Positions 508 through 7,434 of a stretch of DNA of 10,309 bases are shown here, one piece after another. The notes beneath the pieces are model-generated. The model worked only from the letters and a program-made list of their open reading frames with translations. It made no database searches and was not told the origin of the DNA. The DNA is from a bacterium (GTDB lineage: Bacteria > UBP7 > UBA6624): contig PBAU01000002.1 of the NCBI GenBank assembly GCA_002716355.1, positions 96,373 to 106,681 of the forward strand, in the 5' to 3' direction. The translations under genes were made by a program, and so were the position numbers. Position 1 is the first letter of the stretch; every line of letters starts with the position of its first letter.

Positions 508-1548
508 TTACTTAAGACCAGCGGCATTTCCTTCAGAAAAAGTTGCGCCTGCAAGTGTGATGGAGTTAATTCCATCTGCCGCTGTCCACCAAAACACATG
601 CTCTTCAGTACCGTCATCGCTGTTACCAACAATCATCCCATTGTTGCTTATGGCAAATGGATATGAAGCTTCATGCCCTGGGAGAGTTGGAAGCAGGTTG
701 TAATAACCGATCGTAATCGGATCCCAATACCATCCAAAAACACCGGTACCACTGTTTGAGTTTCCAACAATTGTGCCAGCATCATTAATAGCTAAAGCCC
801 TTGAGTCATTCCCATTTAGCGGAAAATCAATATCGACCGCTCCGGTAGTAGCGTTTTGCCAGTACCATCCAACGGTGAGATTGCCGAAAGCACCTCCTCC
901 ATCCCCATAGCCGACAATCGTACCTTGGTTATTGATATCTTTAGCCATTGCCCAGGTTGCTAACGGGAGTTTGTCGATAACAGTCGTTGTCGGATTCGAG
1001 GCAGCAGTGTCATAATACCAGGAATCATATGGCCCAGTACCGCTCCACCCGACGATGACCCCATAATCGTTGACCCCTTCTGCTTGACTCCAGAACTGTC
1101 CAGCAGCATGCGGGATTATGACAAATCCAGCTGATGGGTTTGATATTTCATAATACCAAGGAATCAACCCTTGTGACGTATACCCCACAATCATTCCATT
1201 TTCATTGATGTCAACAGCCCAAGTGTCTCTCCAGCCATCCACCTGTCCGACATTGGTCCAACCAGTGCCTTCTTCCCAATAGGCAAGGCTGAAGTCATCA
1301 CCGGAGACGGTGTTGAATTCGGCTCCGACAATGATCCCATTTTCATTGGCTGCTTTGGCAATATATGATGTTCCGATATCCACAGCGCCTTCAGTTGGAG
1401 TCCAATAGAAAGCGTACTGCCCCGGATTCTGGTCATAGTTAGCCTGGCCAACAACCATATTCTCTTGTGAAACCGGAGTTGGTCCCCCTCCACCTCCACA
1501 AGACACAAAAAACAAGACCAATCCAAAAGTCATCAATAATTTTTTCAT
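508..1548 (-). CDS. Secreted lipoprotein with about seven HAF-like extracellular repeats (N-x-x-G-x-IVG ... aromatic-W), probably a beta-propeller
   Basis: 346-aa ORF. The N-terminus MKKLLMTFGLVLFFVSCGGGGGP is a signal peptide plus lipobox Cys plus poly-Gly linker. The repeated motifs are ENMVVG, NENGIIVG, NENGMIVG, NDYGVIVG, NNQGTIVG, NDAGTIVG and NNGMIVG. Each is followed about 12-22 residues later by AFYW, LAYW, PWYY, SWYY, GWYW, GWYW or VFWW, which resembles the TIGRFAMs HAF-family extracellular repeat. A G-rich SD (AGGGGGG) lies 7 nt upstream of the ATG. Confidence 0.8.
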   Translation of the reverse strand: MKKLLMTFGLVLFFVSCGGGGGPTPVSQENMVVGQANYDQNPGQYAFYWTPTEGAVDIGTSYIAKAANENGIIVGAEFNTVSGDDFSLAYWEEGTGWTNVGQVDGWRDTWAVDINENGMIVGYTSQGLIPWYYEISNPSAGFVIIPHAAGQFWSQAEGVNDYGVIVGWSGTGPYDSWYYDTAASNPTTTVIDKLPLATWAMAKDINNQGTIVGYGDGGGAFGNLTVGWYWQNATTGAVDIDFPLNGNDSRALAINDAGTIVGNSNSGTGVFGWYWDPITIGYYNLLPTLPGHEASYPFAISNNGMIVGNSDDGTEEHVFWWTAADGINSITLAGATFSEGNAAGLK

Positions 1549-1552
1549 AAAA

Positions 1553-1606
1553 ATACCCCCCTAGTTAAAAAACATTATACATAAAGGGGGGATTATAGGG
1601 GGGTAT
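1553..1606 (-). promoter_or_regulatory. Possible SD-sequestering stem in the leader of the HAF-like lipoprotein gene, with two TATAAT boxes embedded
   Basis: ATACCCCCCTA (1553..1563) is the exact reverse complement of TAGGGGGGTAT (1596..1606), giving an 11-bp stem with a 32-nt loop. On the minus-strand transcript the 3' arm contains the G6 Shine-Dalgarno of the gene starting at 1548. On the minus strand, TATAAT boxes occur at 1592..1597 and 1574..1579. Confidence 0.3.
1582..1606 (+). repeat. G6-N6-G6 module (variant) within IR-L
   Basis: The sequence is TAAAGGGGGGATTATAGGGGGGTAT. The spacer ATTATA reads TATAAT on the minus strand. Confidence 0.8.
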
Positions 1607-1713
1607 ATATAAAGGTTAAAGGAGGATTCCAAAGGAGGACTAGGAAAAGCATGCATGCCGGATGCCCATCCCTTTCTCGCACGCATTATGTGCGCACATG
1701 CGCATCGCGCATC

Positions 1714-1742
1714 TAAAGGGGGGAGACTATAGAGGGGGGATT
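1714..1742 (+). repeat. G6-N10-G6 module within IR-L
   Basis: The sequence is TAAAGGGGGGAGACTATAGAGGGGGGATT. It matches the IR-R modules apart from one inserted C in the spacer. Confidence 0.85.
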
Positions 1743-1791
1743 AGAAAGGGATGGTATGGAAGGGGGAAGGGTAGTATAATTTGACTCGAAA

Positions 1792-2706
1792 TTGAGATAC
1801 CTTTCTTTGCTTTTGGCTTTTTTCCTATGTGCTGCTGCGCCTAGCAAGGTCAACCCGTCAAGAGGTCCGTCCCAGGCAAGAAAGGACTATTCAGCAGTTC
1901 AATCGTTAGTCAGGAAATCGCTGAATTCTGAAATTGCAAATGAGAATCCAGGTGAAATTGATCTTTTTTTCCTAGGTATTGCTCTTTACGGTGACCAGGA
2001 TGTGTTCATGAGGGAAACACTCTATGCTCACAACCTCTTTGAAGACAGGTATCACGACCTGTACGGATCCGGAAAAAAATCTTTTGGCTTATCGCTGGTC
2101 AACAACATCAAGACAGCAAACAGGTATCTTTTCGCAACCAAGGAGAATATTGCTGAAATTTTGAAGCTCTTGGGCAAGAAAATGGGTGAAGAGGATATTC
2201 TGTTCATCTATTTCACATCGCATGGCTCAAGAAGTCACAAATTGTCGATGACATTGCCGAGACAGTTCAGAAACAATTTGGATTCAGAAGAAATAAGAAC
2301 AATGCTTGACGATGCGGATATACCCTGGCGCATGCTTATTGTTTCTGCATGTTTTTCTGGCGGATTCATCCCAGGATTGGAGTCACCAAAGACTCTTGTT
2401 GCTACAGCTGCAGATCCAAACCACAGTTCTTTTGGCTGCACAGACACCAGAAATTTTACCTATTACGGAGAAGCTTTGTTCAAAAGACAGTTGAACGAAG
2501 GTACAGGCTTGCTTGATTCCCTTTACAGGATGCCCCCGATCATCAAGGTGATGGAGGATGAGCAGGGTTATAAAAATTCCAATCCACAAATGGTGATTGG
2601 GGATGATTTTTTGGAGCATTGGCAAAAATATCAAGACGATTTAAGGGAAAGATTGACATATCGCAAGGAAGAAAGGCCCAAAAGACCGCCTAAAAGAGGC
2701 TGGTAG
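1792..2706 (+). CDS. Secreted peptidase C13 family (legumain-like, clan CD caspase-fold cysteine peptidase)
   Basis: 304-aa ORF with a TTG start. The signal peptide is (M)RYLSLLLAFFLCAAAP. The segments ILFIYFTSHGS (catalytic His context) and MLIVSACFSGGF (catalytic Cys context), followed by TAADPNHSSFGC, match the pattern of bacterial Peptidase_C13 (PF01650) proteins. The first in-frame ATG is at codon 73, so the TTG at 1792 is needed to retain the signal peptide. Confidence 0.8.
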   Translation: MRYLSLLLAFFLCAAAPSKVNPSRGPSQARKDYSAVQSLVRKSLNSEIANENPGEIDLFFLGIALYGDQDVFMRETLYAHNLFEDRYHDLYGSGKKSFGLSLVNNIKTANRYLFATKENIAEILKLLGKKMGEEDILFIYFTSHGSRSHKLSMTLPRQFRNNLDSEEIRTMLDDADIPWRMLIVSACFSGGFIPGLESPKTLVATAADPNHSSFGCTDTRNFTYYGEALFKRQLNEGTGLLDSLYRMPPIIKVMEDEQGYKNSNPQMVIGDDFLEHWQKYQDDLRERLTYRKEERPKRPPKRGW

Positions 2707-2753
2707 TAAAAATTTAACTAGAATAGTACAAATCATTACACAAGGAGATACAC

Positions 2754-2963
2754 ATGGCAGACAGAGTAAAAGGCACTGTAAAGTGGTTTAACGAAAAGAA
2801 AGGCTTCGGCTTCATATCAAGAGAAGACGGAGGCGATGTTTTTGTTCATTTTTCCGACATTCAAAGCGATGGCTTCAGAACATTAGCTGAAAACCAAGCA
2901 GTTGAATTCGAAATAACAACAGATGACAAAGGCGAAAGAGCTACTAACGTTTCAACAGCTTAA
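2754..2963 (+). CDS. csp: Cold-shock protein, CspA family (CSD / OB-fold nucleic acid binding)
   Basis: 69-aa [19 protein letters not shown] (RNP1-like KGFGFI) and VFVHFS (RNP2-like) are the diagnostic motifs. An AAGGAGA SD lies 6 nt upstream of the ATG. Confidence 0.95.
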
Positions 2964-4213
2964 CTATTTGGTTTAACAATTTCCTTAATTGATTTATCTT
3001 GGTTGTTTTTGCAGCCATTCACCATTGAAGCTTGAATTGCAGCCCCTAGGGAAGCTGTGTCAAATTCAGATAGTACCGAAATATCGGAATTGAACGTATT
3101 GGCAATCGTTTGAACCCACAGTTTGTTTTTGGCACCGCCACCAACCACTCTTATTTCTTTTGCACCGCCGCAAGCATTGCGAATTTTGTCATATCCTCTT
3201 TTCAGAGACCTTGTGATGTTTAGGATTTTGTTCAAATAAATCTTACCTTCTTTTTGATTTGGATTCTGAGATGAAATTTTGGCCAAATCCTCATGGTTTA
3301 AACCAAAACGATCAGTCAGTGCATCTAGCTCTAGTGCACAATCGTTTAGGCAAAAAAGAGGCAGCCAACCACCTATGGCATCACAAAAAGCAGAAATTTC
3401 CGGATCTGATTGCTGGATACACTTTTCACTATGACAAAAAACCGTACCACTAGTTCCAAGACTGATTGCCAATGTGCCACTTTGCAAAATCCCTGAACCC
3501 AGTGCGCTCATCATGTTATCGCCACTGCCTGGAGACACTATGGTTTGTTTACTGATTCCAAATAGTTCTGAGATTTCCCTTGTGATGCTGCCTATGGGCT
3601 TGAATTGATCAACCAGCTTAGGAATCGAGCCCTCCAGATCATCATCTATTGCCATCATTGTTTTTTTATCAAAATTTCGATTTTCAATATCAAAAAAACC
3701 AGTACCACTTGCATCACCAGCCTCCATAACTTTCTGGCCAGTGAGATAAAAATTAATGTAATCATGTGGCAGTAAAACAGTATCAAGTCGCTTGAAACTG
3801 TCCGGTTCTTTTCTTTTCATCCATAATATCTTGCTTGCGGTATAGCGAACAGAAATTTCTTTTCCAGCTATGTTGGAAAGGTCTTCCGCCTCATTGTGCG
3901 TTTCTGTATCGCACCATAATTTTGCAGGCCTTATGACTATGTTTTTTTTGTCCAAAGCCACGAAACCGTGCTGTTGCCCGGAAACCCCAATGCCTTTTAT
4001 TTTTTGCCTATCTGTGATGTTCTTGAGCGCTTTCGCAAGTGATTTGTTGACAGCTTCAATCCATACAGATGGATGCTGTTCTGCCTTGCCATTTTCATCT
4101 ACATCCAAGCCATAAGAATGATGTCCCCTGCTTACGACAGTCTGAATCTCAGCATCCCAAATAAGAGCTTTGGTGCTTTGTGTTCCGACATCCAGACCGA
4201 TATATAAAGACAC
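2960..4213 (-). CDS. xylB: FGGY-family carbohydrate kinase, xylulokinase-like (unusually short, 417 aa)
   Basis: GTG start 2 nt after the xylA stop. The N-terminus [15 protein letters not shown] is the FGGY phosphate-1 motif. Other motifs present are [43 protein letters not shown] and [17 protein letters not shown]. Its position directly downstream of xylA supports a xylulokinase call. Confidence 0.8.
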
Positions 4214-4215
4214 GA

Positions 4216-5418
4216 TTATCTAGTGCCCATGATGTGCTCAACTGCGATTTGGTCAAGCTTTTCATATTGCAACCCTGCTTTAGACAGTTTTTCTGGGTTT
4301 GCATTCATGCTCCGGATTGCTTCAGCATTTTCTTTAGAGTAAGAAAGAATTCCACTTAGGTTGTTTGAATCGCTATGATTCTTGAGAAGAATCTCTTTTA
4401 CTTCGGGGTCATTATTGAATGAATTTGCTTTTTCGGCAAGCATTTTGTAAGTCCTCATGCAACCTTTTGCAAAATCCCAAACGCCTTCTTGGCTTTCTGT
4501 GCGATAGGCATGTGCATCAAAATGTTTTGGGCCATCATATTTTGGATATCCACCACAGCCTTCAAGCAAGCGTACCAAAAAGAAGGCACCCTTGATGTCT
4601 TCGCTGCCAAACCGCAAATCTTGATCGTATCTTCCTATCTTTTGTGCGTTGAGGTCAATATGGAAAAGCTTGCTTGCCTCCATTGCTTGTGCAACAGCAA
4701 AAACCATTGAAAGTCCAGTCATGTTTTCATGGGCAACTTCCGGATTGACACCACACATTTCGGGTTTGTCTAGGGTCGATATGAAATGAAGCATTGACCC
4801 TGTGGTTGGATAGTAAATATCTCCCCTAGGCTCATTCGGCTTGGCTTCAAGTGCAAATTTTAGATTCCAGCCTTGGTCGTTTACCCAGTGACTTAAAAAA
4901 TTGATTGCATCTCGATACCAGCCAATCGCATCCCTTGGATCCTTGCCAGAATCCGTTTCTGCACCTTCTCTACCCCCCCAAAAAACAATTGTTTCAGCTC
5001 CCAGTTCAACACCCATGCTGATTGATTGCATCGATTTTTGTAACGCAAATGCTCTGATTTCTGGATTGCTAGATGTGAATGCTCCATCTTTGAATACGGG
5101 ATGATGAAATAGGTTTGTGGTTGCCATGGGAACCTTCAATCCGGTTTCCTTCAGGGCTTCCTTGAATTTTCCGACAACTGCTTGTTTTTCTTTTTGGCTG
5201 CATCCAAAAGGGATTAGGTCATTGTCATGCAGGTTTACGCCATAAGCGCCACACTCGGCAAGTCCGTGAACTATTTGGACAGGATTAATTTTTTCCCTTG
5301 TAGGCAGTCCAAAAGGGTCTCCACCAGGGTTGCCGACTGTCCACAAGCCAAATGTGAACTTGTCATTTTTTTCAGGTTGGTACATTTCATTCATTGGGTA
5401 TAGATTGTATGTGCGCAT
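4216..5418 (-). CDS. xylA: Xylose isomerase, class I (short actinobacterial/Thermus type)
   Basis: 400-aa ORF that is collinear with Streptomyces-type XI. The matching segments are YQPEKNDKFTFGLWTVG, LHDNDLIPFG, VPMATTNLFHHPVFKDGAFT, WGGREGAE, EAKPNEPRGDI, NPEVAHENM, FHIDLN, YDQDLRFG and HFD. All metal and catalytic positions I recall are present. By homology the true start may be an internal ATG at 5394 (MNEMYQP) or 5385 (MYQPEK), because class I enzymes begin about M-x-YQP. Confidence 0.95.
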   Translation of the reverse strand: MRTYNLYPMNEMYQPEKNDKFTFGLWTVGNPGGDPFGLPTREKINPVQIVHGLAECGAYGVNLHDNDLIPFGCSQKEKQAVVGKFKEALKETGLKVPMATTNLFHHPVFKDGAFTSSNPEIRAFALQKSMQSISMGVELGAETIVFWGGREGAETDSGKDPRDAIGWYRDAINFLSHWVNDQGWNLKFALEAKPNEPRGDIYYPTTGSMLHFISTLDKPEMCGVNPEVAHENMTGLSMVFAVAQAMEASKLFHIDLNAQKIGRYDQDLRFGSEDIKGAFFLVRLLEGCGGYPKYDGPKHFDAHAYRTESQEGVWDFAKGCMRTYKMLAEKANSFNNDPEVKEILLKNHSDSNNLSGILSYSKENAEAIRSMNANPEKLSKAGLQYEKLDQIAVEHIMGTR

Positions 5419-5442
5419 ATGGCTAAAACCATCATGCGCACA
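5410..5442 (-). promoter_or_regulatory. 9-bp perfect inverted repeat (hairpin or operator candidate) spanning the annotated xylA start codon
   Basis: TGTGCGCAT (5410..5418) and ATGCGCACA (5434..5442) are exact reverse complements separated by 15 nt. The ATG at 5418..5416 lies in one arm. The half-sites TATGTGCGCA and CATGCGCA also occur adjacent to each other in the IR-L core (1687..1705). Confidence 0.35.
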
Positions 5443-5449
5443 ATACTCT

Positions 5450-5617
5450 TTACTTAGAGGATCTTTGGGCTCTGGACATTAAACCCATAGCAAAAAGGGT
5501 CCATGCCAAGAAAGGCTCCACGGCATCATTCCAGGTCCAACTGTTGTTTACGGCTTCCATTCCAAGCATCCATCCGATGCCCGCCCAAACACAAAACCAA
5601 TCAAGATCAATCTTCAT
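5450..5617 (-). CDS. Candidate small Trp-rich membrane protein (55 aa), first cistron upstream of xylA
   Basis: My own translation gives MKIDLDWFCVWAGIGWMLGMEAVNNSWTWNDAVEPFLAWTLFAMGLMSRAQRSSK*. A strong SD (AAGGAGGTG) lies 5 nt upstream of the ATG. There are two hydrophobic stretches. It is absent from the ORF track, whose shortest listed ORF is 61 aa. It ends 31 nt before the annotated xylA start. Confidence 0.5.
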   Translation of the reverse strand: MKIDLDWFCVWAGIGWMLGMEAVNNSWTWNDAVEPFLAWTLFAMGLMSRAQRSSK

Positions 5618-5695
5618 AATCGCACCTCCTTAAACATATATACCTTGAAATCTATCATAAAGTTGCTCTTTCCCCCTTCCAGACCATCCCTTTCC

Positions 5696-5723
5696 AATCC
5701 CCCCTCTATATCTCCCCCCTTTA
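5696..5723 (-). repeat. G6-N9-G6 mirror-repeat module within IR-R (copy 1)
   Basis: The plus strand reads AATCCCCCCTCTATATCTCCCCCCTTTA. On the other strand, GGGGGGAGATATAGAGGGGGG is a perfect mirror repeat. It is identical to 5832..5859. Confidence 0.9.
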
Positions 5724-5831
5724 GATGCGCAATGTGCATGTGCGCGCATAATGTGTGCGAGAAGGGGATGGGGATCCGGCATGCATGCTTTTCCTAGTCC
5801 TCCTTTGGAATCCTCCTCTCACCTTTAATTT

Positions 5832-5859
5832 AATCCCCCCTCTATATCTCCCCCCTTTA
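5832..5859 (-). repeat. G6-N9-G6 mirror-repeat module within IR-R (copy 2)
   Basis: This is an exact 28-bp direct repeat of 5696..5723, offset by 136 bp. Confidence 0.9.
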
Positions 5860-5925
5860 TATTGGAAACGCTGCATAAAATAATAGCCTAAATATTTTTG
5901 TAGAATAGGGCTTGGAGGTTTTGTT

Positions 5926-6576
5926 ATGTTTTTATGGTTGATAATTTTCATGATCATTTCATCAGTGGTGCAGAATTCAGTGAGGAAATCCATGGATCGT
6001 GGCCACAGGATTCCCGAAGGCACAGGGATGACTGGAGCGCAGGCTGCAGAGGCTGTTCTTGAAAAGAAAGGCGTTTCTGGAATTGTTGTTGAGGAGGGCC
6101 GCTTTGACCATTATGACCCTAGGGAAAAGGCGATACGCCTGAGCCCGGAGAACTTCAGGAACTCCAGCGTCACTGCAGTTGCAGTCGCATTGCATGAGGC
6201 AGGACATGCACTGCAGCATGCCGAGGAAAGCGCTTCACTGAAAGTCAGGACAGCCTTTGTACCGGTTGCAAGCCTTGGAAGCTCAATGGCTGGGCCACTT
6301 CTGCTTTTCGGGATCTTCACTGGTGCCATGAACCTTGTCTGGCTTGGGATCATTGGTTTTGCGTTTGCGGTTGTTTTCCACATTGTGACATTGCCTGTCG
6401 AGTTTGACGCTTCCAACAGGGCGTTGACCATGGCTGAGGGTTACGGTTTCCTTAAATCTCCTGAGGAGATGAGGGCAGGGCGCAAGGTTCTGGGTTCAGC
6501 GGCATTGACATATGTTGTTGCGGCATTGATAGCACTTGTTCAGTTGATCCATTGGATTGGGATAGCCAGGCGATAA
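5926..6576 (+). CDS. Membrane Zn-metallopeptidase, YugP / Zn_peptidase_2 family
   Basis: 216-aa ORF with a GGAGG SD 8 nt upstream. It has an N-terminal TM segment. The segments MTGAQAAEAVLEKKG, DHYDPREKAIRLS and the HExxH motif in VALHEAGHALQH, plus C-terminal TM segments, match the layout of Bacillus YugP-like proteins (PF04298). Confidence 0.85.
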   Translation: MFLWLIIFMIISSVVQNSVRKSMDRGHRIPEGTGMTGAQAAEAVLEKKGVSGIVVEEGRFDHYDPREKAIRLSPENFRNSSVTAVAVALHEAGHALQHAEESASLKVRTAFVPVASLGSSMAGPLLLFGIFTGAMNLVWLGIIGFAFAVVFHIVTLPVEFDASNRALTMAEGYGFLKSPEEMRAGRKVLGSAALTYVVAALIALVQLIHWIGIARR

Positions 6577-6612: not shown

Positions 6613-7290
6613 CTAATAGTCAACGCCGTAAGGTCGGCCATCCTCCCATTCTTCGCGGATGTTTCTTGTGAATTCGCTGAATATGTTTCTGAAGAGCCTT
6701 AATTTTCTGCCCCGCATCCTTTCAAAGAGCCATGTGGGAACCTCTATGTAGCAGCCATCGCCCAAATGGAATCTTCTCATCCTATAGTCATCACGATCCC
6801 AGTCATAGGGACGACGCCTCCTCCAAGGCGGTGGAGGGGGTATGGACCTCTCGTGGCGAGGAGTGTGGTCTCTTCGTTCATATACATCCATGCTTCTCAT
6901 TTTTTTTGGATTCGGTGCCTCCATGATCATCATGTCTGTTTTTGCCAACTCCCTTTCATCCTTGTAGTGTTCCGGAAACTCTCTTTTCATCTGCATCTTT
7001 ACCTCCTTGTTCGAGAACCCTTGATCCTGCCTTTTCAGGATCAGTTTTGCCAAGCTGTAGTGCTTGTGCCCATAACCTCCGCTCCTGCTGCGTTTTGGCT
7101 TTGGGAGAAGTCCTTCGACCACCCAGTAGCGAATCTTCCTCCCAAGCTTGCCTATTGCGGAATCTGTCATTGCAAGATCCTTTCCAATCCTTTCTGCAAG
7201 GTCTTTAAGTGTTATCTCCCCTGTTGGAAAGTCTTGCTGCAACCCAGTTGCCTGGTTTGCGAAAAATGGGCTTAATTCTTTTTTAGTCAT
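6613..7290 (-). CDS. Hypothetical DNA-binding protein with a MerR-like N-terminal HTH and an uncharacterised Arg/Pro-rich C-terminal region
   Basis: 225-aa ORF. ITLKDLAERIGK...RKIRYWVVEGLLPKPKRSRSGGYGHKHYSLAKLILKRQDQGFSNKEV resembles the MerR pattern (HTH, R-Y-W/Y-E-x-x-G-L-L, then Y-R-x-Y). The C-terminus contains PPPPPWRRRRPYDWDRDDYRMRRFHLGDGCYIEVP, which I do not recognise. Confidence 0.6.
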   Translation of the reverse strand: MTKKELSPFFANQATGLQQDFPTGEITLKDLAERIGKDLAMTDSAIGKLGRKIRYWVVEGLLPKPKRSRSGGYGHKHYSLAKLILKRQDQGFSNKEVKMQMKREFPEHYKDERELAKTDMMIMEAPNPKKMRSMDVYERRDHTPRHERSIPPPPPWRRRRPYDWDRDDYRMRRFHLGDGCYIEVPTWLFERMRGRKLRLFRNIFSEFTRNIREEWEDGRPYGVDY

Positions 7291-7303
7291 TTTTTGTGTT
7301 TTT

Positions 7304-7332
7304 ATTATATATTATATAAATGACAGTGTCAA
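7304..7332 (-). promoter_or_regulatory. Consensus sigma70-type promoter for the MerR-like gene, overlapped by a TGACA-N-TGTCA palindrome
   Basis: The minus strand reads TTGACA (7332..7327), a 17-nt spacer, then TATAAT (7309..7304). The -10 ends 13 nt before the ATG at 7290 and there is no SD, so the predicted mRNA is leaderless or has a very short leader. The palindrome TGACAGTGTCA at 7321..7331 overlaps the -35. Confidence 0.5.
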
Positions 7333-7434
7333 TTAAATAATATATATCATATAAATATAAAATATTTTCTATGAATATTGACAGTTTAAATATTTAAGTG
7401 ACACTATTAATTTAGGAATATTGTTTTAAGGCGA

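Follow-up and report, generated by a model that had tools for sequence, protein, structure and literature searches.

What are two long inverted repeats doing on either side of a 3.9-kb group of genes in the chromosome of an uncultured marine bacterium? The question is raised by a stretch of 10,309 nucleotides (nt), below called the window, from a member of the UBP7 lineage (assembly GCA_002716355.1, contig PBAU01000002.1, positions 96,373 to 106,681). A preliminary description made from the sequence alone noted two copies of a repeat of about 190 base pairs (bp) and offered three explanations: an intergenic repeat family carrying a bidirectional regulatory cassette, a substrate for homologous inversion of the segment, or the footprint of an ancient insertion. 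The reading favored here, which is held with about even confidence, is that the repeats are paralogous copies of a lineage-specific, modular and non-coding bidirectional upstream cassette that would be shared by the promoters of a few envelope genes and would act at the level of DNA.

The Repeat Pair and Its Modules

Copy A and the reverse complement of copy B (Table 1) are about 90% identical. A repeat search delimits the inverted arms as 1598-1726/5711-5839 (129 nt, 90%) and 1716-1768/5670-5722 (53 nt, 87%). The preliminary description had counted eight substitutions and a 1-nt indel in the 149-bp core (1620-1768), and a global alignment to the reverse complement of the copy B core reproduced this, the indel being internal. 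Its remark that the outer ends are more diverged also holds; the full 188/191-nt alignment contains 19 substitutions and five gap columns, most of them toward the outer end. Exact inverted matches in the window reach 44 nt, compared with maxima of 12-18 nt in 20 shuffled sequences, and copy A was recovered by nhmmer with an E-value of 2e-65. The element is 66% purine on one strand and thus displays a strong strand asymmetry.

The repeat is non-coding, as had been proposed. In both candidate frames the differences between the two copies are mostly non-synonymous, and the indel breaks the frame. The small open reading frames (ORFs) of 44, 56, and 78 amino acids (aa) that gene callers place in the repeat vary from contig to contig, and neither tRNA nor tmRNA was found at the elements. 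The distances of 32, 23, 52, and 65 nt given earlier to the nearest start codons are right for the ORFs at 508-1548 (-), 1792-2706 (+), 5450-5617 (-), and 5926-6576 (+).

What had been missed is that each copy is internally repetitive, with a G-box of 22-28 nt at both ends, the two about 134-136 nt apart, and that the contig contains a third copy, which is truncated, outside the window and about 390 nt upstream of its first position (L011:7818-7915). Described on the G-rich strand, which is the plus strand for copy A and the minus strand for copy B, the order is G-box 1, a purine-rich module, a C-rich segment, a palindromic block, G-box 2, and a purine tail. Each copy comprises about 1.4 units of a module of approximately 136 nt (palindromic block, box, and purine tract), while in relatives the number of units is one (L023, L029) or at least 1.6 (L018). 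The consensus of the G-box is TAAA-G6-[AGA]YTAT[AGA]-G6. G-box 1 reads TAAA-G6-ATTATA-G6 in copy A and TAAA-G6-AGATATAGA-G6 in copy B, while G-box 2 reads TAAA-G6-AGA(C)TATAGA-G6. The boxes are the most conserved part of the element, the remainder diverging to about 65%, and their arms are exactly G6 in every copy and every lineage of the family, including copies that were found by protein look-up rather than by the box pattern.

Phase variation by slippage in the G-runs, as in a contingency promoter, was considered and rejected, since the G6 run length is the same in all copies. Helical phasing of the two boxes was discarded because their spacing ranges from 134 to 142 bp, and Z-DNA at the palindromic block because its alternating purine/pyrimidine run of 19 nt is inside the range of shuffled sequences (maximum 21).

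A conserved hairpin, GTGCGCAT...ATGCGCAC, is found at 5408-5444 (-) between the 55-aa ORF and the gene for the TIM-barrel protein, where it overlaps the start codon of the downstream gene. The stem is similar in sequence to the repeat's palindromic block (three matches to ATGTGCGCACAT where 0.4 is expected), and the sequences of L313 and L316, read by eye, display apparent compensatory changes in the upper stem.

Loci and Copy Number

Copies were sought with the box pattern in GTDB representative genomes and JGI metagenomes, the matches then being filtered by BLAST and nhmmer, and the copy number rests on representative metagenome-assembled genomes (MAGs) and exact matches to the box. Four distinct loci are known. 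Copy A represents the locus between an HAF-like (or 261-aa) gene and the C13 peptidase gene, and copy B the locus between the operon of the 55-aa ORF and either the YugP gene or an inserted lipoprotein gene. The third locus, that of the truncated copy, carries a gene for a 357-aa lipoprotein or for MerC, and the fourth is at a pair of SPFH/Band-7 genes, 3' of an MqnC-like gene. In all four a gene starts 36-127 nt from the box on the side toward which its C-rich strand reads, while the G-rich side of the third and the fourth faces only the 3' end of a gene.

Three species-representative MAGs of the lineage, whose large contigs were scanned whole, gave only one or two box hits each, indicating that the family is low-copy and gene-associated rather than proliferating. 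The proposal of an intergenic repeat family with a bidirectional cassette therefore stands in so far as more promoter-adjacent copies exist and are conserved across lineages, but with about four loci the family is not widely dispersed. Diverged relatives carry the element at these loci too (L091/L313, L104, and L316, and for the SPFH locus L018/L023/L029). Proteins identical to those of the window are encoded on contigs from Tara Oceans and other marine metagenomes, among them a 59-kb contig (L011), a 140-kb scaffold, and a MAG at NCBI. The homologues of the FGGY kinase of the window are 100, 82, 65, and 61% identical to it and then drop straight to 43%, which argues that the lineage is isolated and uncultured.

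A repeat of this kind might be functionless, spread by ectopic recombination and kept by gene conversion, so that its proximity to promoters is a by-product. The concerted evolution described below would fit such a repeat, as would the modular or tandem make-up with 1, 1.4, or at least 1.6 units, an overall conservation no higher than that of the flanks, and the many contigs that break in the element, although the local copies themselves explain these breaks. It is difficult to reconcile with the very low copy number, with the occupation of the same loci in lineages whose proteins are 61-70% identical, and with an orientation toward gene starts that is constant in four of four loci. Nor would it be expected that the boxes stay invariant, with a G6 that never slips, while the remainder diverges, or that many phages independently conserve a box like it. 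We consider a functionless repeat unlikely, but to be reckoned with.

Gene Conversion and the Orientation of the 3.9-kb Segment

When the two copies are compared over the 93-nt inner module, they are 100% identical within each of L308, L325, L327, and L328, 97.8% identical within L001, 92.5% within the window, and about 90% within L312/L313, while orthologous copies in different lineages are 76-80% identical. Several strain-specific variants are common to both copies of a genome (TCTCAAG, the presence or absence of C in GAGA(C)TATAG, and CAT(C/T)GCG). The inverted copies are thus homogenized by gene conversion.

Inverted homology of 93-190 nt that demonstrably recombines might also be the substrate of a functional homologous inversion, a flip-flop of the 3.9-kb segment. 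The first half of this proposal is correct in that the copies do recombine, four assemblies having identical ones. The second half is contradicted by the order of the genes. One orientation (YugP-side/small ORF ... C13/HAF-side) is found in at least 12 independent assemblies from the lineage of the window and its 82% relative (L001, L002, L007, L308, L309, L322, L323, L324, L325, L326, L327, and L328). In the 61% lineage (L312, L313) the junction between the HAF-like and C13 genes is present together with both repeats, the outer flank past copy B lying off the contigs. In a single MEGAHIT contig, L311, the small-ORF end is instead linked to an A-type element and the HAF-like gene (1-760, 4658-4724). 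The end that adjoins the C13 gene is however also A-type, while a reciprocal crossover would have put a B-type element there, and L311 is therefore not a clean inversion product. Most likely it is a mis-join through 55 nt over which the two copies of that lineage do not differ, or it stems from a gene-converted strain. Several contigs of about 4 kb end in both repeats (L310, L314-L316), as is expected from the assembly graphs of inverted repeats. The preliminary description had seen neither recombinase nor transposase in the window, and Pfam searches of the window and of the 18.5-kb locus on L011 bear this out. An inversion would moreover re-wire no promoter, since each gene keeps its own half-cassette. 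A functional inversion is accordingly judged very improbable.

The segment could alternatively have been delivered, with its genes for the C13 peptidase, cold shock protein, kinase, and isomerase, by an ancient insertion or a composite transposon of which the repeats are the footprint. Apart from being bracketed by inverted repeats, the segment has a slightly lower G+C content, 0.36-0.44, compared with about 0.50 in the right flank. No transposase, terminal inverted repeats, target-site duplication, or allele lacking the segment was however found. Other copies, L011C and the one at the SPFH locus, bracket nothing, and the arrangement is old and stable. This origin, the third of those originally suggested, must be regarded as extremely improbable. 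Since the inverted pair is best read as a promoter-region cassette present twice, an annotation of the 3.9-kb segment as mobile or invertible should be avoided.

The outer halves follow another pattern, being swapped along with the lipoprotein genes next to them. The A-type outer half is found upstream of two unrelated lipoprotein genes, a second upstream type (TTTATATYGGAAACCTTGCATTAAAATCAAGGGTATA) is found upstream of two other lipoprotein genes, and in L308 a C-type outer half is joined to an A-type inner half. In L001, TTGGAAAC and GCTGCATAAAAT are the exact borders of the inserted 507-aa gene, which adjoins box B1. The lipoprotein genes next to the outer G-box vary among strains, encoding proteins of 507, 280-303, or 357 aa with similar signal peptides, or are lacking (window 5856-5925; L001:4245-5890; L035:4150-5090; L011:6640-7850; L039:330-420). 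As judged from these sequences, the elements are junctions at which lipoprotein genes are gained and lost.

Neighboring Genes and Candidate Promoters

By Pfam, the neighbors are a DUF3466/HAF-like lipoprotein, a C13 peptidase, a CSD protein, a short FGGY kinase, and an AP_endonuc_2 TIM-barrel protein, in addition to the 55-aa ORF, a YugP-type Zn peptidase, a MerR regulator, and an asparaginase. Across the family the neighbors are envelope proteins: lipoproteins with similar signal peptides, the Zn peptidase, MerC, SPFH proteins, and the secreted C13 peptidase. The -10-like hexamers listed in Table 1 adjoin both ends of the element and are kept between lineages whose proteins are 61-70% identical; the promoter assignments are consensus matches only. 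The sequence TGTATAAT is conserved in L005, L035, L091, and L095 and also precedes the 280/303-aa genes, while merC is preceded by TATGAT-N7-ATG.

Table 1. Repeat copies, their modules, and adjoining candidate promoter hexamers (window coordinates).
Feature	Position	Strand	Remarks
Repeat copy A	1581..1770	+	G-rich strand is the + strand
Extended -10-like TGTATAAT (candidate)	1574..1581	-	Adjoins box A1, faces the HAF-like lipoprotein gene
G-box A1 (outer)	1582..1603	+	TAAA-G6(1586-1591)-ATTATA-G6(1598-1603); G4Hunter 1.92
Purine-rich P module, two AAAGGAGGA	1604..1649	+	Also kept in copy B and relatives
C-rich segment (GGATGCCCATCC, CCATCCCTTTCT)	1650..1677	+	Complementary to tail
GC-rich alternating purine/pyrimidine palindromic block ("Z block"), 36 nt	1678..1713	+	ATGTGCGCACAT at 1688-1699
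G-box A2 (inner)	1714..1739	+	TAAA-G6(1718-1723)-AGACTATAGA-G6(1734-1739)
Purine-rich tail	1740..1770	+	Repeats start of P module
TATAAT, -10-like (candidate)	1775..1780	+	4-6 nt past tail, 11 nt before the TTG start of the C13 peptidase; all lineages
TATATA, -10-like (candidate)	5637..5642	-	Upstream of the Shine-Dalgarno sequence and ATG of the 55-aa ORF; all lineages
Repeat copy B	5669..5862	-	G-rich strand is the - strand
G-box B2 (inner)	5699..5723	-	C6 at 5699-5704 and 5714-5719 on the + strand
Palindromic Z block of copy B	5724..5759	-	ATGTGCGCGCAT at 5738-5749
G-box B1 (outer)	5835..5859	-	C6 at 5835-5840 and 5850-5855 on the + strand
Extended -10-like TGTAGAAT (candidate)	5899..5906	+	YugP-like gene; in every strain, whichever gene is inserted upstream

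Taken as an upstream cassette, the element would work as follows. Since -10-like hexamers adjoin both its ends, it would occupy the -35 and upstream region of two back-to-back promoters. The outer half (G-box 1 and the purine-rich module) would travel with the outward gene, for a lipoprotein, YugP, or MerC, and the inner half (C-rich segment, GC-rich palindromic block, G-box 2, and purine tail) with the inward gene, either that of the C13 peptidase or the operon of the 55-aa ORF. The invariant G-boxes, and perhaps also the palindromic block, would bind a putative factor or adopt a non-B structure, and a few envelope genes would in this way be coupled in their expression. That each copy faces outward toward its own gene would account for their inversion, gene conversion keeps them alike, and the intervening segment would be ordinary chromosome rather than a mobile or switching unit. 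The anatomy, the contexts of the copies, the fixed orientation, and the concerted evolution are seen directly in the sequences, while promoter activity, factor binding, and co-regulation are inferred.

Several observations weigh against such a cassette. The identity of the element across lineages is 64-83%, similar to that of nearby coding DNA and of other intergenic flanks, so that it gives no proof of selection outside the boxes. The spacing between box and candidate -10 varies from approximately -20 to approximately -100, arguing against a fixed activator geometry, and the box-to-box spacing also varies, as given above. No canonical -35 sequence is conserved, and the only linked regulator gene is the MerR gene, which looks unrelated. 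With four loci known, regulon is too strong a word.

A sigma-70 promoter inside the box itself (TATAAT/TATAGT on the C strand) was rejected, a plausible -35 sequence being present at box A1 only (TTAACC, 16-nt spacer).

Several genes of the lineage seem to be nearly leaderless. The TATAAT of the C13 peptidase gene is not followed by any Shine-Dalgarno sequence (1775-1794), and merC is of the same kind (L039:375-395; L107:60-80). This suggests that mRNAs with a short leader or none may be frequent in the lineage.

Two genes of the segment had been labeled xylB and xylA, but these labels are looser than was stated. The product of "xylB" (2960-4213, -) is an FGGY kinase of 417 aa; its nearest homologues have 479-498 aa, so that it is short by about 65 aa, and FGGY_C is matched only at its end. 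The product of "xylA" (4216-5418, -) matches only the generic AP_endonuc_2 TIM barrel. The assignment to xylose is therefore unproven. The 55-aa ORF (5450-5617, -) belongs to no Pfam family. The identical protein is found in 96 blocks of the contig collection, and an ORF of 55 aa is found at the same position in the 61% lineage. An AT-rich near-palindrome at 7289-7363, with 37-nt arms that are 76% complementary and a 1-nt spacer, occupies the low-G+C gap between the start of the MerR-family gene and the end of the asparaginase gene.

The G-Box Beyond the Lineage

The box pattern matched at least 90 metagenome contigs and at least 74 viral contigs, most of which are unrelated to the element yet contain G7-ACTATA-G7 or G7-ATTATA-G7. 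The motif was found in at least 58 distinct flank contexts, mostly from phages, and is exactly G7/G7 in 43 of these (loci among L024-L305). When the loop was left free (G7-N6-G7), the viral contigs gave ACTATA 15 times and ATTATA eight times, while every other loop was found at most twice; the reverse-complement loops TATAGT and TATAAT were not found at all in this control, from whose counts poly-G artefacts were excluded. Box A1 (G6-ATTATA-G6) and its counterpart in L308 (G6-ACTATA-G6) are of the phage type.

In the phages the motif is mostly intergenic and displays no orientation bias relative to the genes, as called by a crude ORF caller. In contigs resembling the MPP-C cyanopodoviruses the box is situated 31-53 nt past the stop codon of the terminase large-subunit gene (39 nt in L140, 5248-5270) and is followed by about 600 nt of AT-rich non-coding DNA. 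L141 has the box after terL as in L140, and the isolate P-SCSP2 carries GGACACTATAGGAGA at the corresponding place. In a second T7-like group the box is also downstream of terL. In at least one other phage group (L149, 7856-7875) it is found directly upstream of the terminase small-subunit gene, which was identified by a PHROG match, and in the L173 group (5080-5099) shortly before a 141-aa ORF without annotation, which is followed by the gene for the large subunit. Among cultured phages, DNA searches gave no context for the motif, and protein searches led only to P-SCSP2 and uncultured records. No description of the motif was found in the searchable literature, the motif strings returning only T7-primer sequences, and the paper on the MPP-C cyanophages does not mention it.

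The core of promoters for single-subunit RNA polymerases of the T7/SP6 type is ACTATAG, and the mitochondrial conserved sequence block II consists of a pair of G-runs. The G strand of the box, which reads G-run, ACTATA, G-run, resembles both. Unlike T7-type promoters, however, ACTATAGG is not enriched in P-SCSP2 (41 matches compared with 35 expected) and the motif has no orientation bias, and a T7-type promoter was therefore rejected; the window, for its part, is ordinary bacterial chromosome. A wider but rather doubtful possibility is that the G-box belongs to a widespread, strand-oriented, and apparently undescribed motif, G6-9/AYTATA/G6-9, which is usually exactly G7-ACTATA-G7 and in several phage groups is situated next to terminase genes or at the end of the genome. 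The motif would constitute a new class of cis-elements, of which the 190-bp repeats would be chromosomal arrays controlling envelope-gene promoters. Such a motif may be a recognition site in transcription by a polymerase, in packaging, or in replication, or it may be a switch based on a G-quadruplex or an R-loop.

RNA Structure and Non-B DNA

If the element were transcribed, it might act as a structured RNA, either as a C-rich 5' leader or antisense RNA or as a sponge rich in GGA and Shine-Dalgarno-like sequences from the G strand. The C strand of copy A folds better than shuffled sequences (z = -4.4), with a stem CCAUCCCUUUCU/GAGAAAGGGAUGG that encloses two hairpins. In an alignment of eight sequences 93.8% of the cells pair, and changes on one side only are compatible with G-U pairing on the C strand. 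The other three strands, that is copy B and the G strands, are however no better than the shuffles (z = -0.9, -0.7, and +1.3). The preliminary description had proposed a covariance analysis of homologues, and in the eight-sequence alignment this gave nothing above the controls: only two compensatory pairs, no excess over shuffles (45-51 of 500), and 74% pairing even with a +2 slide. An RNA structure of the element is thus unsupported by covariation. No terminator is present, and the stem partners differ between lineages. A match to a known non-coding RNA family would have spoken against the novelty of the element, but the Rfam scans returned none in the elements of the window at E ≤ 1 and none at the gathering score in 17 related loci. 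Altogether a role as RNA seems quite improbable.

The sole Rfam hit anywhere in the scans is a weak one to the cspA thermoregulator, inside the csp coding sequence at 2835-2909 (+), with 24.9 bits compared with a gathering score of 78. It is probably due to coding similarity and not to an element of the 5' untranslated region.

The box and the purine tracts might instead act through non-B DNA (G-quadruplex, i-motif, H-DNA, or R-loop) that is sensitive to supercoiling or transcription between divergent promoters. G4Hunter ranks the four boxes above all other windows in the 10.3 kb (absolute score about 2.0), GGGGGGAGATATAGAGGGGGG is a perfect mirror repeat with homopurine arms in a purine-rich element, and the prevailing phage form, G7-N6-G7, can be written as G3-N1-G3-N6-G3-N1-G3 and thereby fits the canonical pattern of four G3+ tracts with short loops. 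The G6-N6/10-G6 of the family, in contrast, gives only two G3 tracts, and its arms would not yield a canonical three-tetrad quadruplex within one box. A purely structural role would also leave the oriented and nearly invariant AYTATA loop unexplained, and the alternating run is, as mentioned above, within reach of shuffled sequences. As a separate explanation non-B DNA appears improbable to much the same degree as structured RNA, but it could equally be the mechanism by which the upstream cassette works.

Comparison With Known Repeats

The element seems to be most like the promoter-associated modular intergenic repeats BOX and CREE (Correia repeat enclosed elements) and the shared upstream regions of lipoprotein multigene families, while it fails the defining tests of miniature inverted-repeat transposable elements (MITEs), of repetitive extragenic palindromic (REP) sequences and bacterial interspersed mosaic elements (BIMEs), of invertons, and of every Rfam family.

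BOX elements of Streptococcus pneumoniae and BIMEs are present in tens to hundreds of copies of palindromic or stem-loop units, often adjoin promoters, and are thought to modulate the expression of neighboring genes. Like these, the present family lies in non-coding intergenic DNA and is modular, the number of internal units being variable. It differs in having about four loci instead of a high copy number, a purine-rich strand asymmetry, no terminal inverted repeats, and a G6-YTAT-G6 core. REP/BIME units are imperfect palindromes of 20-40 nt, while the unit here is about 136 nt and strand-asymmetric, with only the GC block being palindromic; membership in that class was rejected. The Correia elements of Neisseria are MITE-like, with terminal inverted repeats, a duplicated TA target, and a high copy number. 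The likeness is that of small repeats whose ends create or adjoin promoters and influence adjacent genes; terminal inverted repeats, a target duplication, and a high copy number are absent here. A MITE, insertion sequence, or composite transposon was rejected on similar grounds: the ends ATAAAGGGGGG... and ...GGGGGAAGGG display no terminal inverted repeats or target-site duplication in any copy, the loci encode no transposase, and each representative MAG has one or two box hits.

In the lipoprotein multigene families, exemplified by the "upstream homology box" of Borrelia and the promoter regions of the vlp and vsa genes of Mycoplasma, shared upstream DNA and similar signal peptides likewise precede different lipoprotein genes, and recombination shuffles genes behind a common 5' region. 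Unlike these regions, the element has an invariant G6 and no site-specific recombinase, and it also serves non-lipoprotein genes on its other face. The inverted repeats of plastid genomes are homogenized by gene conversion and undergo frequent flip-flop inversion. Here too the inverted copies are more alike within a genome than orthologues are between lineages, but one orientation is seen. As in invertons, inverted repeats flank a segment, but they are 190 bp long and surround 3.9 kb of genes rather than being short and surrounding a promoter. An inverton was rejected, since Pfam gave no recombinase in the window or the 18.5-kb locus and at least 12 assemblies display a single orientation.

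Implications

The bracketed and possibly invertible segment is largely explained away by these results, and what remains of interest is the G-box, which is invariant and puzzlingly abundant in the genomes of phages. Should a single function underlie the motif, it would serve as a new landmark, easy to search for, of genome ends in phages, late operons, or regulatory DNA. The repeat pair itself is a clean natural example, seen in several strains of an uncultured lineage, of inverted intergenic repeats that gene conversion homogenizes without inverting what lies between them. The cassettes furthermore mark hotspots for the gain, loss, and exchange of lipoprotein genes behind shared upstream DNA, and this suggests how the surface-protein repertoires of the lineage may vary.

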